A stretch of DNA of 64,000 nucleotides from Candidatus Marinacidobacterales bacterium. GTDB lineage: Bacteria > Acidobacteriota > Vicinamibacteria > Marinacidobacterales > SMYC01. The stretch is taken from positions 608,001 through 672,000 of the forward strand of contig CBDCYI010000005.1 of the NCBI GenBank assembly GCA_965224085.1, written 5' to 3'. Every line of letters starts with the position of its first letter. The stretch's first letter is position 1. Under the pieces are notes generated by a model. It was not told the DNA's origin. It searched no databases and was given only the letters and a program-made list of their open reading frames with translations. Below, piece after piece: positions 16,338 to 22,197 of the stretch. The position numbers and the translations under genes are program-made.

Positions 16338-16497
16338 CTAGAGTACCCACGTGTGCGCAACTATGTTGGCTCGTGGCAAGAATGGGGTAACCGAGACGGG
16401 CTGCCGGTCGTAACGCCCAAGGACGCGACGCGCGCGCCCAATCGTGCCCTCGACTAGCAAGTTGAAGTAGACTTGCCCGGCGTTGCCTGGAGGTTTT

Positions 16498-19400
16498 ATG
16501 CTCGCGAAAATCTTGCCCCTGTTTCTACTCGTCGCCGTCCCACTGGCGGCCCAAGACGTCTCTGAAGAGCTCTATCAAGATCTGAAATACCGCCACATCG
16601 GCCCCGTCGGCAACCGCGTCGCGGCCGTCGCGGGCGTGGCCGGCGATCCGCTCACCTACTATGCCGGCGCGGCTTCCGGCGGCATTTGGAAGTCCGAGGA
16701 CGGCGGCGAGTATTGGCGTCCGATCTTCGACGATCACCCCGAGCACGCTATCGGTGCGCTCGCCGTAGCGCCCTCCGATGCCCAGATCGTTTGGGCGGGG
16801 ACGGGTGAGCCGCACATCCGATCGAACGTTTCCATCGGAAGCGGTGTCTACAAATCCACCGATGGCGGCGAGACGTGGACGAAGATGGGGCTCGCTTGGC
16901 CGAGCCGCACGGCGCGTGTGCTCATCCACCCCAAGAATCCCGACATCGTCTATGTCGCCGCGCTCGGGCACAGCCACGGCCCTCAAGCAGAGCGGGGCAT
17001 CTTCCGCACGATGGACGGTGGTGAGACGTGGGAGCACGTGCTTTTCGTCGACGAGAACACCGGCGCGTCGAGCCTCGAGATGAGCCCGAACAACCCGCGT
17101 ATCCTCTTCGCAGGAATGTGGAACGTTCAAGTGCACACGTGGGGCCGCGAGAGTGGCGGTTCGGGAAGCGGCATCTACATGTCGCGCGACAGCGGCGACA
17201 CTTGGACCAAGCTCGAAGGCAACGGGCTCCCCGAGCTTCCTGTCGGCAAAGTCGACATTTGTTTGACACCCGCGGACTCGAATCGCATCTATGCGCTGAT
17301 CGAGACGGGCGACGGTGTCCCTTGGCACGGCGAGAAGACCGAGAGCGGCGAGTTATGGCGCTCGGATGACGGCGGCAAGAATTGGCGCTTGATGACGCAC
17401 GACCGCAACCTCGGCGGCCGCACGGGTTACTACAACAACTGCGTCGTCCTGCCGGACGACCCCGATGAAGTCTTGTTCTTGACGGCCGCCTTCGTGCGTT
17501 CGATTGACGGCGGACGTACAGGTATTCCCCTCCGTGGGCGCCAACGTCCAGGCGGCGACTACCATGACTTGTGGATCGATCCGACGGATGGTAACCGGAT
17601 GATTGTCGGAAACGATGGCGGCACGGCCGTCACGATGACCCGCGGCAAGAGCTGGCACCGGGTGCAGCTTCCTATTGCCCAGATGTACCACGTGACCGCG
17701 GACAACGCGATCCCCTACAACGTCATGGGCAATCGTCAAGACGGGCCGTCCACGCGCGGGCCGAGCCGGAGCCGTACCCGCGGCTTCGGTGGCGGCAGCA
17801 TCCCGCGCGGGATGTGGCATTCCGTCGGCGGCGGCGAGAGCGGCTTCGCCAGCCCGGATCCGACGGACCCGAACATCATCTGGTCGAGCGCTTCCGGCGC
17901 CGGGGCGCGCGGCGGCATCGTCGTCCGCTACAACGAGACGACGCGCCAGTTCCGTCAAGTCGAAGTGTGGCCGGAGAGCACAGGGGGCTGGCCCGCGGCG
18001 GAGCTCCGCTACCGCTTTCAGTGGACGTTTCCGCTCCTCATCTCACCGCACGACAACAACACCGTGTTCGTAACGAGCCAGAACGTGCATCGCACGACGA
18101 ATGGCGGCCAGAGCTGGGATGTCATCAGTCCCGACCTCACCACCGACGACAAGTCGAGGCAAGGCATTTCAGGTGGCCTCACACCGGACAATATCGGTGT
18201 CGAGTATTGCTGTGTCATCTACGCGTTCGACGAGTCTCCCGCGCAGGCAGGTGTGCTGTGGGCGGGCTCTAACGACGGCATGGTGCACGTCAGCCGTGAC
18301 GGCGGCACCAGTTGGGCCGACGTTACCGGCAATCTTCCCGACCTGCCGCCCGACGGCGTCGTCCGAGGCATCGACGCCTCGAAGTGGGACGCCGCGAAAG
18401 CCTACCTGGCGATCGAGCATCATCAGCAAGGCAACTTCGACCCGCATGTCTACAAGACCGACGACTATGGCGCGAGCTGGACGAAGATCGTCGACGGCAT
18501 CACGGATAGCCCACTCAGCTACGCGCGCGCGGTCATCGAGGATCCGGTCCGGCCCGGCCTTCTCTATCTCGGCACCGAGAACGCCGTCTACGTGTCGTTC
18601 AACGACGGCGAGCTCTGGAAGCCGCTCCAGAACAACTTGCCGGCCTCGCCAAACTACGGCCTCGTCGTTCAAGAACACTTCAACGATCTCGTCGTGGGCA
18701 CTTACGGACGCGGTTTTTGGATTCTGGATGACGTCAGCCCGCTTCAGCAGCTGACGGACGAAGTCGCCTCTTCCGAAGCGCACTTGTTCGAACCGAAACC
18801 GGCCTACCGTTTTCGCCCGATCACGTCGCCGATGTCGATGCCGAACGATCCGTCGGTCGGCGAAAATCCGCCAGAAGGCGCGAGCATCAACTATTGGTTA
18901 TCGGGCGAGGCGGAGGAAGGTGTATGCCTCGAGATCCAAAGCGCCGCCGGGGACACGCTACGGACTCTGAGCGGAACGAACCATCCCGGCATCAACCGCG
19001 TGTGGTGGGATTTCCGCGGCGAGCCGTCGACCGAAATCAAGCTTCGGACGGCGCCCCAATATGCGGATTGGGTCGAGCTCAATCAGGATCGTTGGCGTCC
19101 GGCTTTCGTCGGCCGCATCTCGGTCGTCGAGCCGCCGGGCACGTACACGGTGGTCTTGAAGGTCGGCGAGCACGCGATGCGCCAAACGCTCGAAGTCCTC
19201 AAAGATCCGAGTTCCGAAGGCTCCGAGGCGGACATCCGTGTGCAGACCGAGATGGTGCGCACGCTGAGAGACGAATTGAATGCCGTGGCGGAATCGATTA
19301 ACAAGATCGAGTGGATCCGCCGGCAGCTCGAAGACCTGCAGGCCGTCGCGGAAGATCTCGGCAACAACGCGGCCGCGATCGTGTCGAGCGCCCAAGAGCT

Positions 19401-19698
19401 CGACGGGACGTTCGTAGCCCTCGAAGAGAAGATCGTGCAGCTCAAGATCACCGGGACCGGCCAAGACCGCGTGCGCTGGCCGATGCGCGTCGCGGGACGG
19501 GTCGCCTATCTCGCGAGCGCCGTGGCGGTCGCGGACTTTCCCCCCACGGATCAACACCGCGAGGTGCATCAAGTCCTGAGCGGCCGCTACGCGGAGTACC
19601 AAATCGAGCTGGATCGATTGCTCAACAATGAGCTTCCTGCGTTCAATCGAACGCTGGAAGAAAACGGTCTCCCCCGCGTGGTCACGGGGGGCGAGTGA
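16498..19698 (+). CDS. Secreted VPS10/BNR-repeat (sortilin-like) glycosyl hydrolase
   Basis: RBS GGAGG, signal peptide, RHIGP.GNRV, many S/T-x-D-G-G-x-T/S-W Asp boxes, GTYGRGFWILDD, helical C-terminus. Confidence 0.88.
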   Translation: MLAKILPLFLLVAVPLAAQDVSEELYQDLKYRHIGPVGNRVAAVAGVAGDPLTYYAGAASGGIWKSEDGGEYWRPIFDDHPEHAIGALAVAPSDAQIVWAGTGEPHIRSNVSIGSGVYKSTDGGETWTKMGLAWPSRTARVLIHPKNPDIVYVAALGHSHGPQAERGIFRTMDGGETWEHVLFVDENTGASSLEMSPNNPRILFAGMWNVQVHTWGRESGGSGSGIYMSRDSGDTWTKLEGNGLPELPVGKVDICLTPADSNRIYALIETGDGVPWHGEKTESGELWRSDDGGKNWRLMTHDRNLGGRTGYYNNCVVLPDDPDEVLFLTAAFVRSIDGGRTGIPLRGRQRPGGDYHDLWIDPTDGNRMIVGNDGGTAVTMTRGKSWHRVQLPIAQMYHVTADNAIPYNVMGNRQDGPSTRGPSRSRTRGFGGGSIPRGMWHSVGGGESGFASPDPTDPNIIWSSASGAGARGGIVVRYNETTRQFRQVEVWPESTGGWPAAELRYRFQWTFPLLISPHDNNTVFVTSQNVHRTTNGGQSWDVISPDLTTDDKSRQGISGGLTPDNIGVEYCCVIYAFDESPAQAGVLWAGSNDGMVHVSRDGGTSWADVTGNLPDLPPDGVVRGIDASKWDAAKAYLAIEHHQQGNFDPHVYKTDDYGASWTKIVDGITDSPLSYARAVIEDPVRPGLLYLGTENAVYVSFNDGELWKPLQNNLPASPNYGLVVQEHFNDLVVGTYGRGFWILDDVSPLQQLTDEVASSEAHLFEPKPAYRFRPITSPMSMPNDPSVGENPPEGASINYWLSGEAEEGVCLEIQSAAGDTLRTLSGTNHPGINRVWWDFRGEPSTEIKLRTAPQYADWVELNQDRWRPAFVGRISVVEPPGTYTVVLKVGEHAMRQTLEVLKDPSSEGSEADIRVQTEMVRTLRDELNAVAESINKIEWIRRQLEDLQAVAEDLGNNAAAIVSSAQELDGTFVALEEKIVQLKITGTGQDRVRWPMRVAGRVAYLASAVAVADFPPTDQHREVHQVLSGRYAEYQIELDRLLNNELPAFNRTLEENGLPRVVTGGE

Positions 19699-19823
19699 GC
19701 TACGAGCTCGTGCCACGAGCGCCGGGCGTCGCGGATTATCGGCGCGTTCGCCTCGCCGCAGGGCTTCAAGACAGAGGCATCGACGCGGCGGAGCTGGGGC
19801 TCAGCAACATATCTGGACTCCTC

Positions 19824-20109
19824 AATCAACACCTTTCTCAAAAAAGTCTTCCTCAGAGCTGCTCGTCCAAATCGGTGACGAGTGGGTCAGACTGCAAACA
19901 TATCTACGGCCTCAGTGAGGAGCGTCTTGGGTGCTCCGGGCCATGACGGAAAATCCGCGCGCGAGGAGCCAATCACTTTGAGCGACCTCTGAGGGCCAGT
20001 GTTGCTATCGGCTTGACCCCGCGCCGGTCCGACCGGTACGCCATCAGTTGGATGGGTATCGTCGCAGCCTCTGTTGGAAGGGAAGAAGGAAAACACGAAA
20101 GTGGAGCCT
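19824..20109 (-). ncRNA. Predicted bridge/seek RNA of the IS1111-type element (ends approximate)
   Basis: Non-coding region 3' of the recombinase contains AGCAACACT, AAGTG, UCCGUCA and AGAUAUG, matching target and donor halves in the expected order. Confidence 0.75.
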
Positions 20110-21144
20110 CTATGCGGCCGCGGGCACCGACTGGAATTCACTCTCGCGGGTGGAGACGGCCCAGACTATCCGGGCGAGTTTGTTGGCGACAGCAATCGCG
20201 GCTTTGTTGTGTCCCCGCGAGCGGTGGACCTTCCGCGCCCAGGCGCGGAGCTTGTCGGGCGGGCTCTTGCTGACGTTGGCCGCTCGGAGCACGGCGCGTC
20301 CGCCCTGCGTGAGGAGCGTACGGAGGTAGGAGTCGCCACGCTTGGTGATGCGCCCGAGGCGGCGAATGTCACCACTGGAGTTCTCTTTGGGAACGAGGCC
20401 GAGGTAACTCGAGAAGCGGCGTCCCGATGGGAAGCGGCGCAGATCCCCAACGAAGCCGACGATGGCGGTCGCGGTCAGAAGTCCGATGCCGGGAATGGTG
20501 AGAAGTCGTTGCACCTCAGGAAGCTGCTTGGCGAGCGCCTTGAGCTCGTGCTCGATGCCAGCGCACTTGTCCTTGAGCTCTCGAATCTCGGAGCACGCAT
20601 CACGCAGGTGCGGACGGAGCACGTCGGGCAAATCAGAATCAGCGTCTTCGACGAGCTCGGAGATGGCGGGCACGACGAAGTGAGCGCCCTTGGGGATGAA
20701 GAGTCCGAGCTCGCGCAGGATCCCGCGTACGGCATTGATGCGTGCGGTCCGTGTGGAGAGCCATCCTGAGCGTAGGCGATGGAGCGCGGCGAGGGTGTGC
20801 TGGCGCACGGACTTGATGGGCACCGAAAGAATCTCCTCGTTCCGGTAAGCCTCGAGCAAAGCTTTGGTGTCCGCGCGGTCGTTCTTGCTCCCGCGTCGAT
20901 ACGGCCTTACGAGGTGAGGTGGGAGCAGGACGACGTCGTGTCCCAACCGTTGCAACGTCCTTGCTCAGAAGTGAGCCGAGCCGCAGGCTTCAAGAAGCAC
21001 GGTGGCAGCGCTCTGTTTTGCAAAAAACGACACCAACTTGGGTCGACTCACACGGAGTTGCTTGGACACCTTCCCCGCTTCGCGCGAGATGGCAATCTCG
21101 AAGACGTTCTTTGCAAGATCCACAGCGATCGTCGTATCTTTCAT
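20110..21144 (-). pseudogene. IS110 DEDD recombinase with premature TGA (20965-20967)
   Basis: RBS GGAGGAG; IAVDLAKNVF, LEACGSAHF*AR, KNDRAD, IPGIG, SYLGLVP.E.SSG, GRITKRGD, AIAVANK; 345 codons if read through. Confidence 0.9.
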
Positions 21145-21531
21145 TCGGACTCCTCCTTTTTCGATGCGTTCTTTCGACTGACTTTGGCACATCGATGCCG
21201 TCTATGTCAGCGGAGGAGTCCATCCCATCACTTGATACGGCGTCTCCATCCTCGACGACGGCGAGGTCGTCGGGATGGGGCGCGTCATTAGTAAACGGGG
21301 AGACGGCGGCTGTTTTTTCCAAGTCGTCGACATCGCCGTGGTGCCGGAACATCAAGGCCGAGGCTTGGGTACGCGGATCATGAAAGCACTCGTCCACCGT
21401 CTGCAGCACCACGCACCACCGTCCGCTTATGTCAGCTTGATCGCCGATGGCAACGCCCATCGCTTGTACAGCAAGTTTGGATTCGCGGCGACGGCGCCTG
21501 AGTCGATCGGCATGTATCTCAAAATTTGACG

Positions 21532-22197
21532 ATGGCGAACGACGCGGCCCAAGAGCAATGGTCGTCTCAGCGCGCCTTTCTACTTGCAGCCGTGGGAAGC
21601 GCTGTCGGTCTCGGAAACATTTGGCGCTTTCCGTACATCACCGGCATCAACGGTGGGGGCGCTTTCGTGCTCGTCTACTGCGCCTGCATCGCGTTGATTG
21701 GCGTCCCCCTTTTGATGGCGGAGATGGCCATCGGTCGCCGCGGCGGCCGAAGCCCCGTCGGCACGATGCGGAGCCTCTCGAAGGAGCACGGCGGCAGCCG
21801 ATTTTGGGAAGGCGTCGGCTGGCAAGCCGTGCTCGCGCCGACCGTCGGGCTCATGTACTACGCCGTTGTCGCCGGGTAGACGATGGACTACGCGTTGTCG
21901 GCCTTGAGCGGCGCGTTCGGAGGCATCACGGATGCGGACGGGGCCGGCGCATTGTTCGGAGCCCTGACCAACAACATCCCACGGATGATGCTGGGGCACG
22001 CGATTTTCATGGGTGTGACGATCGTGATCGTCGCCGCCGGCATCCAGAAAGGCCTCGAGCGCGCCGTGAAGTTTCTCATGCCGTCGCTCGCCGTGCTCGT
22101 CCTCGTCGCCTACACGGCGCTGACGGCCGACTTCATTGGCGCTTTGGCCTTTCTTTTCAAGCCCGACTTCTACAAGCTAACGCCCGCAGTAACATAG
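21532..22197 (+). pseudogene. Sodium:neurotransmitter symporter (NSS/SNF) family, nonsense TAG at 21877 and 3'-truncated
   Basis: GSAVGLGNIWRFPY, NGGGAF, YYAVVAG*TMDY, GIQKGLER, FLFKPDF. Confidence 0.88.

Follow-up and report, generated by a model that had tools for sequence, protein, structure and literature searches.

Anatomy of the insertion sequence

The window analysed here is a 64,000-nt stretch (G000:C5:608001-672000) of a 6.87-Mb assembly in 12 contigs, the genome of a sponge-associated acidobacterium, which was also the genome searched for further copies. On its minus strand lies a 1421-bp insertion sequence, very probably a copy of an IS1111-type element (IS110 family) with an RNA of the bridge RNA or seekRNA kind. 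Its extent, gene and ends are as follows:

19810..21230, minus strand: whole insertion sequence, 1421 bp with one copy of the CA/TG dinucleotide counted (the other CA is at 19808-19809)
20110..21141, minus strand: recombinase gene, ATG at 21141-21139, stop codon TAG at 20112-20110, 343 codons
21213..21222, minus strand: 5' subterminal inverted repeat, TGGACTCCTC on the recombinase strand, followed outward by a 6-nt extension, ATGGGA, and TG (21223-21230)
19814..19823, minus strand: 3' subterminal inverted repeat, GAGGAGTCCA on the recombinase strand, followed by a 4-nt extension, GATA (19813-19810)

The junctions with the flanking DNA read ...AGCAACA/TATCTGG at 19809/19810 and ...CCCATCA/CTTGA at 21230/21231, from which an empty site of AGCAA-CA-CTTG and a circle junction of ...TCCCAT-CA-TATCT can be deduced. 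An earlier interpretation made from the letters of the window alone (the sequence-only reading) had proposed this target and this circle junction, and both are borne out by the junctions and by the flanks of other copies. It had also placed the element in the IS1111 group with a guide RNA encoded downstream, an assignment that holds on the protein domains, the subterminal repeats and the matches of an RNA model 3' of the gene, all described below. A search of the assembly for the circle junction or for a head-to-tail dimer, with up to 2 mismatches allowed, gave 0 matches.

Both subterminal repeats are 10 bp long and lie 8 and 6 nt from the ends (TG counted). They are invariant across the clade, with TGGACTCC at the 5' position in most relatives and GGAGTCCA downstream of the RNA. 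In the IS1111 group the subterminal inverted repeats are described as 7-17 bp long, with short extensions out to the termini (PMC11208160), and the element at 19810-21230 has this trait. It also has the group's uneven distribution of non-coding DNA, 300 nt after the stop codon versus 89 nt before the ATG. Subterminal repeats and a long downstream non-coding region are the traits given as separating IS1111-type from IS110-type elements (PMC11187229; PMC11208160).

The recombinase and its nonsense codon

Upstream of the recombinase ATG is a Shine-Dalgarno sequence, GGAGGAG. The encoded protein has the two domains by which the IS110 family is recognized, an N-terminal DEDD RuvC-like domain (Pfam PF01548, DEDD_Tnp_IS110, 41.9 bits, cut-off 29) and a C-terminal Transposase_20 domain (PF02371, 90.5 bits, cut-off 21.3). 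With an intact copy (P0002) as the query, the NCBIfam model NF033542, "IS110 family RNA-guided transposase", is matched at 301 bits against a cut-off of 140. The C-terminal domain can be aligned with the IS621 and ISCro4 chains, GLVPKENSSG falling on GLTPRRYESG, and this alignment identifies the conserved serine of the G--P----SG motif. In IS621 the aligned serine is the catalytic one. Relatedness over the whole length was judged on ISPa25, and is 47.2% identity to the ISPa25 transposase at 98% coverage. At 343 aa the protein is within the range of the IS1111 group (330-350 aa), whose recombinases have been reported to share a GL-P----SG motif and a matching length (PMC11187229).

In the window copy the reading frame is broken by an in-frame TGA at 20967-20965. 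The codon is real, as the sequence-only reading had it, and is TGG (Trp) in the other copies. The accompanying suggestion that the recombinase could be revived by repairing this one TGA is moot, as 8 other copies in the same genome have TGG at that codon and an open frame. A naturally intact copy is, for example, the one at G000:C4:1283652-1285072. At only two positions, 20965 and 21019, does the window copy have a base that none of the 6 other full-length copies has. Each is a C to T change on the plus strand (G to A on the coding strand), and one of the two creates the stop. The ends and the RNA region are like those of the intact copies, the RNA region being identical in intact copy L002; because of this, the window copy could still be mobilised in trans, its nonsense codon notwithstanding. 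The presence of two in-frame TGAs within 1.5 kb, one in the recombinase gene and one in the restored acetyltransferase gene into which the element is inserted, had raised the question of TGA as a sense codon. Recoding was rejected because the recombinase TGA is unique to the window copy and because TGA serves as the stop codon of the large open reading frame (ORF) upstream, where it overlaps with the GTG start codon of the next gene.

Copies and landing sites in the genome

The genome contains 7 full-length copies of the element at 98-100% identity, together with more than 20 fragments. All 7 full-length copies and 4 additional right ends have identical end bases. Their flanks share the target, so that the check on other copies proposed in the sequence-only reading comes out in its favour. 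Read in plus orientation, most left flanks have ..AGCAACA, or this sequence with one base changed, next to the element. The 11 right flanks start with CTTGA (7/11), CTCG (3/11) or CTTTC (1/11), and in 5 of the 11 the flank extends as CT(T/C)GAT(G/A)GCGGAAGCACC. The consensus obtained from the copies is ..AGCAACA/CTTGATGGCGGAAGCACC, which confirms AGCAACA/CTTGA as the target; exact 12-mer target sites are left empty at 2 places in the genome.

The target can be extended to a 25-mer with 46 occurrences in the genome at up to 5 mismatches, 6 of which are right flanks of copies. This 25-mer makes inverted repeats of 23-25 nt. Between the members of one pair is a unit of 1.2 kb with an ORF of 368 aa, whose match to the IS1 transposase model PF03400 reaches 35.7 bits (cut-off 24.1) and whose score on the NCBIfam IS1 model is 84.5 bits, under that model's cut-off of 100; a second pair encloses a unit of ~280 bp. 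The preferred landing site in this genome is mainly the terminal inverted repeats of an IS1-family element and its small derivatives. The window copy occupies a secondary site, within a small acetyltransferase gene:

5' part 19695..19809 and 3' part 21231-21529, plus strand: interrupted small acetyltransferase (GNAT-like) gene, from the ORF list and relatives

When the two halves of this gene are rejoined, an in-frame TGA is found at 21233-21235 (..S N T stop Y G V S..), inside the target CTTGA. Relatives of the acetyltransferase have Trp (G009) or Leu (G011) at this position, and therefore a TGG to TGA change either improved the site as a target or came after the insertion.

A conserved RNA downstream of the gene

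Homologues of the recombinase can be used to ask what is conserved in the DNA beside it. Sixty loci from reference genomes were taken, together with 80 loci kept of 588 metagenome relatives. The closest homologues are in "Candidatus Marinacidobacterales" assemblies (94-99% identity), and others are found in assemblies of Acidobacteriota, Gemmatimonadales, Gaiellaceae and Acidimicrobiia (45-63% identity). A covariance model, R1, was built from 12 well-aligned 3' regions of relatives with a structure written by hand. A search of 100 loci with R1 yielded 94 matches. Each of them is on the same strand as the recombinase, and with a single exception they directly follow the gene on its 3' side. The features of this RNA in the window copy are listed here:

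19890..20046, minus strand: conserved bridge/seek RNA core (covariance model R1), from the 5' strand of helix H0 through the conserved UUUGCAGUC after guide 4
20038..20046, minus strand: H0 5' strand, UGAUGGCGU, whose pairing partners are GCG at 19958-19956 and the last six bases of guide 3
19983..19998, minus strand: P3 hairpin (UGGCC CUCAGA GGUCG), which caps the target loop; as helix 6 of the model, 4/5 pairs changed on both sides
19907..19943, minus strand: P5 (UGGCC / GGCCG) around the P6 hairpin (GGAGC ... GCUCC), between guides 3 and 4

At its 5' side the layout opens with the long-range helix H0. A small hairpin comes next, then stems P1 and P2, an internal loop with P3 as its cap, and finally stems P5 and P6. 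The structure is conserved, as would be expected of a bridge RNA or seekRNA. In the R1 alignment 90.4% of the cells are paired, compared with at most 47.4% when partners are slid; compensatory changes on both sides are found in 29 of 43 pairs, and none of 500 shuffles reaches any of five measures. In the P5/P6 region helix 7 is 99.5% paired and helix 8 is compensatory in 5/5 pairs. An unfitted MAFFT alignment of 12 sequences still has 12 compensatory pairs, versus 5.7 ± 1.4 in shuffles.

Public sequencing data give a weak hint of expression. Runs labelled sponge metagenome contain the stretch, parts of which are present in three runs recorded as RNA and in one guessed to be RNA. The span of one 161-nt metatranscriptome contig, 19892-20052, coincides almost exactly with the conserved RNA core. 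The parts of the element for which the RNA libraries gave no contigs are uninformative either way.

Guides and their DNA partners

Four motifs had been picked out by the sequence-only reading, and all four are present on the recombinase strand within the 300 nt after the stop codon: AGCAACACU (20006-19998), AAGUG (19978-19974), UCCGUCA (19950-19944) and AGAUAUG (19905-19899). Placed on the conserved structure, they correspond to three guides and one guide candidate:

19999..20006, minus strand: guide 1, AGCAACAC, 5' side of the target loop, complementary to the target top strand G-TG-TTGCT
19974..19982, minus strand: guide 2, CUCAAAGUG, forming the 3' side of the target loop and reading in the sense of the left flank with TG added (..TCAAG-TG)
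19944..19951, minus strand: guide 3 candidate, UUCCGUCA, before P5, complementary to the 5' tip TG-ATGGGA
19899..19905, minus strand: guide 4, AGAUAUG, unpaired after P5, same sense as the 3' tip A-GATA-TG (7/7)

Guide 1 pairs with the right flank, the TG and one further base, and fits the uninterrupted target at 8/8. The match of guide 2 is 5 nt if contiguous, or 8 nt with one bulged A. In the single-sequence fold these two guides form the two sides of one internal loop (mean probability of being unpaired 0.71 for guide 1 and 0.74 for guide 2), as the sequence-only reading had hoped for all of its guides. There is thus a loop whose two guides read both strands of the target and, as shown next, change with it. 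A top-strand-complementary segment 5' of a bottom-strand one has been reported for IS1111 seekRNAs (PMC11187229), and this is the order found in the window element.

Covariation was examined by reading the guide stretches from the alignment and finding the element ends through the subterminal repeats, which left 49 non-identical loci with both ends. The fit of each guide to its own DNA was compared with 2000 permutations, and for each of the four guides 0/2000 reach the own mean. For guide 1 and the right flank the own mean is 6.39 of 8 (permutation mean 4.67), for guide 2 and the left flank 3.90 of 7 (2.96), for guide 4 and the 3' tip 6.41 of 7 (5.57), and for guide 3 and the 5' tip 4.71 of 6 (4.36). 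For instance, guide 1 and right flank read AACACTTC with GAAGTGTT and AACCATCG with CGATGGTT in some relatives, and CACCTTCC with GGAAGGTG and AGCAGGGT with ACCCTGCT in others. In 6 of the 49 loci guide 1 matches only 4 of 8. Guide 4 tracks five variants of the 3' tip: GATA, TATA, TACA, TACC and GACA. The earlier claim that all four guides are readable, and the covariation check it called for, thus stand for guides 1, 2 and 4, which covary with flank or tip DNA, but not for guide 3. Its agreement with the 5' tip is six Watson-Crick and two wobble pairs (G-T, U-G) of 8, and it follows helix H0 more than the DNA.

Weighing the guide assignments

Several observations weigh against reading the region as an RNA that addresses both the target and the element's own ends. 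The permutation tests ignore relatedness, and kin sharing both guide and flank inflate their figures; the R1 alignment was fitted to the model and so favours the model's structure. Folded as a single sequence, the region is not stabler than its shuffles (z = -0.94). A scan of 19700-21350 found no sigma-70-like promoter and no terminator on the RNA strand, the one terminator-like site in this range being on the plus strand, inside the gene. The 161-nt contig is the sole sign at the RNA level, and such contigs show neither ends nor strand while their libraries may hold DNA. At the level of the target, 6 of the 11 right ends lie outside the IS1-type repeat, and specificity is loose. For the donor module, an IS621-like loop closed by a stem P4 was tried and rejected (duplex -5.67 versus -5.60 in permutations, 311/1000). 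The two distal bases of guide 3, beyond the helix, have no significant covariation with the DNA (299/5000). Among the 48 position-cases (41 distinct triples) in which the H0 5' segment and the DNA differ, guide 3 is complementary to the RNA 35 times, to the DNA 10 times and to neither 3 times.

Taken at their strongest, such points would mean that the matches in this copy arose by chance and that the 3' region is merely a 3' untranslated region or a decayed remnant. The unremarkable fold fits that account, and so does an Rfam scan of 19000-22000 at E <=10, which gave only four chance-level matches to unrelated families and no match to a bridge RNA or seekRNA. Dinucleotide shuffles of the non-coding region (n=3000) point the same way for part of the evidence: a target match of at least 9 nt on either strand occurs in 40, a donor match of at least 7 nt in 816, and both in 14. 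Within this one copy the 9-mer is unusual, whereas the 7-mer and the 5-mer alone are not, the 5-mer being uninformative. The weight of the case for the RNA lies in the comparison with relatives rather than in the single copy, and there chance becomes an extremely improbable explanation, given the structure-model matches beside homologous genes, the compensatory pairs, the covariation of guides with flanks in relatives and the identity of the region to that of intact copy L002.

Guide 3 calls for separate treatment. In the single-sequence fold its mean probability of being unpaired is 0.33-0.39, and in the model it is part of H0, whose 5' strand has the letters of the element's own 5' tip (TGATGG). 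In the free RNA, guide 3 is predicted to be in a paired stem, and its role as a guide is that of a candidate only. The fold expected by the sequence-only reading, with guides in two internal loops, is thus found for guides 1 and 2 but not for guide 3, which is in a paired helix with no closing stem for a donor loop. H0 itself covaries, UGAUGG/CCAUCA being replaced by UCAUGG/CCAUGA, CCAUGG/CCAUGG, UUAUGG/CCAUAA or AGAUGG/CCAUCU in relatives. Own duplexes have a mean of -6.73 kcal/mol compared with -4.79 kcal/mol in permutations (0/1000), and 4/6 pairs are compensatory.

This leads to a second alternative, in which the RNA guides only the choice of target and the recombinase recognizes the ends mainly through the subterminal repeats. 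The donor guides would then be scaffold, guide 3 as a strand of H0 and guide 4 as conserved sequence. The behaviour of guide 3, whose hexamer follows H0 rather than the DNA in most of the cases above, the covariation of H0, the lack of support for a stem closing the donor loop and the clade-wide invariance of the subterminal repeats are all in keeping with such an arrangement. There is also a precedent, as seekRNAs of 82-96 nt with only two target matches are described as sufficient for ISEc11 movement, and Siddiquee et al. suggest that end recognition may differ between families (PMC11187229). Against it, guide 4 tracks the five tip variants, including the rare TACCCG (3 loci), GACATG (1) and TACACG (3), and there are a few loci where guide 3 agrees with the DNA and departs from H0; two of these (L098 and L106) read GGATGA like their own ends. 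Donor-complementary bases have moreover been reported in IS1111 bridge RNAs, often in a multi-loop (PMC11208160). Target-only guidance is on balance unlikely. The reading preferred here is that of an RNA addressing both the target and the ends, in which guide 4 fits the 3' tip, and guide 3 is complementary to the 5' end yet constrained mainly by H0.

The dinucleotide at the crossover

The sequence-only reading had assigned the element a CA core. In the window element TG (CA on the plus strand) is indeed what both junctions read, and it recurs in IS1-type repeats that carry no insertion and as the end of guides 2 and 4. A shared two-base core is not demonstrated for the clade, in which the left-junction dinucleotide is a constant TG, guides 2 and 4 read CG and the right junction varies. 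In 55 non-identical relatives, guide 2 ends in CG in 50 and guide 4 holds CG in 53. At the left junction of these relatives TG is present in 46, plus 3 misread by the fixed register, and at the right junction CG is present in 27, with seven other dinucleotides in the rest. The simplest reading of these sequences would assign TG to the 5' end of the element and the dinucleotide after it to the target, and a strict two-base core shared across the clade is not established by them. For ISKpn4 and ISPst6, AA/CG is given as the insertion point in Table 1 of a review (PMC13604230). The window lineage is the only one in the set with TG in both guides 2 and 4, in step with its new target; in the sister L024, guide 2 alone has changed.

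Proposed mechanism

The element encodes a 343-residue DEDD/serine recombinase and, on the same strand downstream, a structured RNA of roughly 160 nt. Most likely, one internal loop of this RNA would present two guides, guide 1 pairing with the top strand in the right half of the target and guide 2 with the bottom strand in its left half. The element's own ends would be served by a second module, which flanks stem P5, guide 4 reading the 3' tip and guide 3 being a candidate for the 5' tip. A complex of recombinase and RNA would then join the circularised element to the target, with strand exchange at or beside the TG (CA on the plus strand). Binding of the RNA by the protein, the circular intermediate and the chemistry of strand exchange would follow by analogy with IS621, ISEc11 and ISKpn4.

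How H0 could fit into this scheme is a matter for speculation. One tentative idea, which we hold to be doubtful, is that in this IS1111 clade guide 3 pairs with an RNA-borne copy of the 5' tip (UGAUGG, 20046-20041) in a helix whose covariation does not depend on the DNA, that the helix serves as a decoy or gate or as a double-strand invader, and that crossover takes place without a shared core. As a decoy or gate, H0 would sequester the right-end guide until the recombinase or the donor DNA displaces the helix. As an invader, both strands of H0 would enter the two strands of the element's end. That guides 2 and 4 read the target dinucleotide (CG, or TG in the window lineage) while the left-end TG is constant suggests a crossover without a shared core, and the same observations suggest a donor module that works unlike the free internal loop of IS621.

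Relation to known systems

The nearest named element in a plasmid collection is ISPa25, whose recombinase has the identity given above and whose 3' region is matched by R1 at 96 bits (E 9e-26), pointing to the same RNA scaffold 3' of the gene. With these two matches and that to NF033542, what the sequence-only reading had called a new RNA-programmable recombinase turns out to be a member of a described clade. The element joins an already annotated kind and is not a new system. The ISPa25 guides read GCATTGTT and CTTGAACG, of which the first is the listed ISPst6 target and the second the listed ISKpn4 target (Table 1, PMC13604230). ISPa25, ISKpn4 and ISPst6 are described as IS1111 members that insert in integron attC sites, and a seekRNA was co-purified for ISKpn4 and ISPst6 and predicted for ISPa25 (Siddiquee et al. 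2024, PMC11187229). The window element has in common with these three the order of the two target matches and the kind of subterminal repeats. It differs from them in host, a sponge-associated acidobacterium instead of a proteobacterium, and in target: they use attC, whereas the window lineage, with AGCAACAC and CUCAAAGUG, uses an IS1-family element's inverted repeat and has TG, not CG, in guides 2 and 4. The attC core site motif, GTTRRRY, is present within 22 nt in 42 of the relatives' 70 distinct right flanks, where the background rate is 1.1%. A similar choice of landing site, the terminal inverted repeat of another mobile element in one orientation, is known for IS4321/IS5075, which were likened by description only; their host element is of another family (IS1 family here), and the target is unrelated.

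Redirection of an IS1111 element in nature has been described for ISEc11 and ISXne4, which have the same scaffold, other guides and targets, and 72% protein identity (PMC11187229). Relative L022 offers a parallel to this pair, having 94% protein identity to the window element and a different sequence at its insertion site, with guide 1 differing at 4/8 and guide 2 at 5/9 positions. The change is unlike one confined to the guides, as the rest of the L022 RNA differs at 24/132 positions. The sister genome that carries L022 also carries many L024-type copies.

The likeness to IS621 and ISCro4 is more distant. These elements too combine a DEDD and serine recombinase with one RNA that holds guides for both target strands and for the element ends (PMC11208160; PMC13626964), and the C-terminal domain aligns, including the SG serine, but identity is detectable only there (E about 1e-7). 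In IS621/ISCro4 the RNA lies 5' of the gene and not 3', and the order of top-strand and bottom-strand guides is reversed in the window element. In addition, no simple internal loop holds the donor-side bases of the window element, of which one is in a long-range helix that closes a multi-branch junction. For many IS1111 orthologues, Durrant et al. describe donor-binding bases in a multi-loop and not in a simple internal loop, the arrangement that H0 creates in the window element's RNA (PMC11208160). A helix like H0 may already figure in the published seekRNA folds or in drawings of IS1111 bridge RNAs (PMC11187229, PMC11208160).

Descriptions of guide RNAs in IS110/IS1111 elements date back to 2024 and the NCBI model already names the protein as RNA-guided, which makes this an ordinary finding for the field. 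Its modest value lies in a populous natural family from Acidobacteriota of sponges, of which this genome has 7 full copies and sister genomes have dozens, and in copies whose junctions are clean and whose guides and targets can be read off directly. The family also shows a move away from attC-like targets, with an IS1-family element's inverted repeats taking their place, and about 90 aligned RNAs give a covariation-backed structure for a 3'-encoded RNA. The long-range helix over the presumed right-end guide bears on how IS1111-type elements recognize their own ends. This covariation-backed helix and the geometry of the crossover are the points of interest that are left.

Additional observations

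Partial pieces of the element's 3' end are stacked at G000:C9:514575-517317, C4:1232216-1232926 and C5:1163413-1163743. All start at the 3' terminus (positions 1-29, 1-46/52, 1-180, 1-239, 1-565 and 1-793) and adjoin each other or a full copy, with CA at most joints and no match to guide 1 at the joints. Solo pieces with all or much of the RNA region (1-212, 1-347) are also present. The stacked and solo pieces resemble the separate RNA-module circles reported for ISPpu9 (PMC12288879). Two relatives, L051 (1028-1228, 3066-3266) and L144 (1092-1285, 2103-2318), have two RNA-model matches per locus, ~1-2 kb apart, and thus contain either two elements in tandem or a full element accompanied by a solo RNA module.

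On the plus strand, the DNA of guide 1 (19998-20006) is a 10/11 copy of the target (AG-TG-TTGCT-A) in inverse orientation, so that copies of the element could in principle insert into one another's RNA gene. No boundary exactly at the guide 1 DNA was seen among the element fragments in the genome. The IS1-family element that provides the preferred landing site is present at G000:C4:505269-506475 (L169) and at ~40 other places, and its 23-25-nt inverted repeats start GGTGCTTCCGC. Miniature derivatives of it are also found, such as the ~280-bp unit in L170, and the element and its derivatives are clustered in a few regions of contigs C4, C5 and C9. Next to the interrupted acetyltransferase gene, an ORF of 1071 aa (16483-19698) contains many D-G-G-x-(T/S)-W-like repeats and is possibly a sortilin/BNR-like repeat protein; it is this ORF that ends at the TGA overlapping the GTG start of the acetyltransferase gene.

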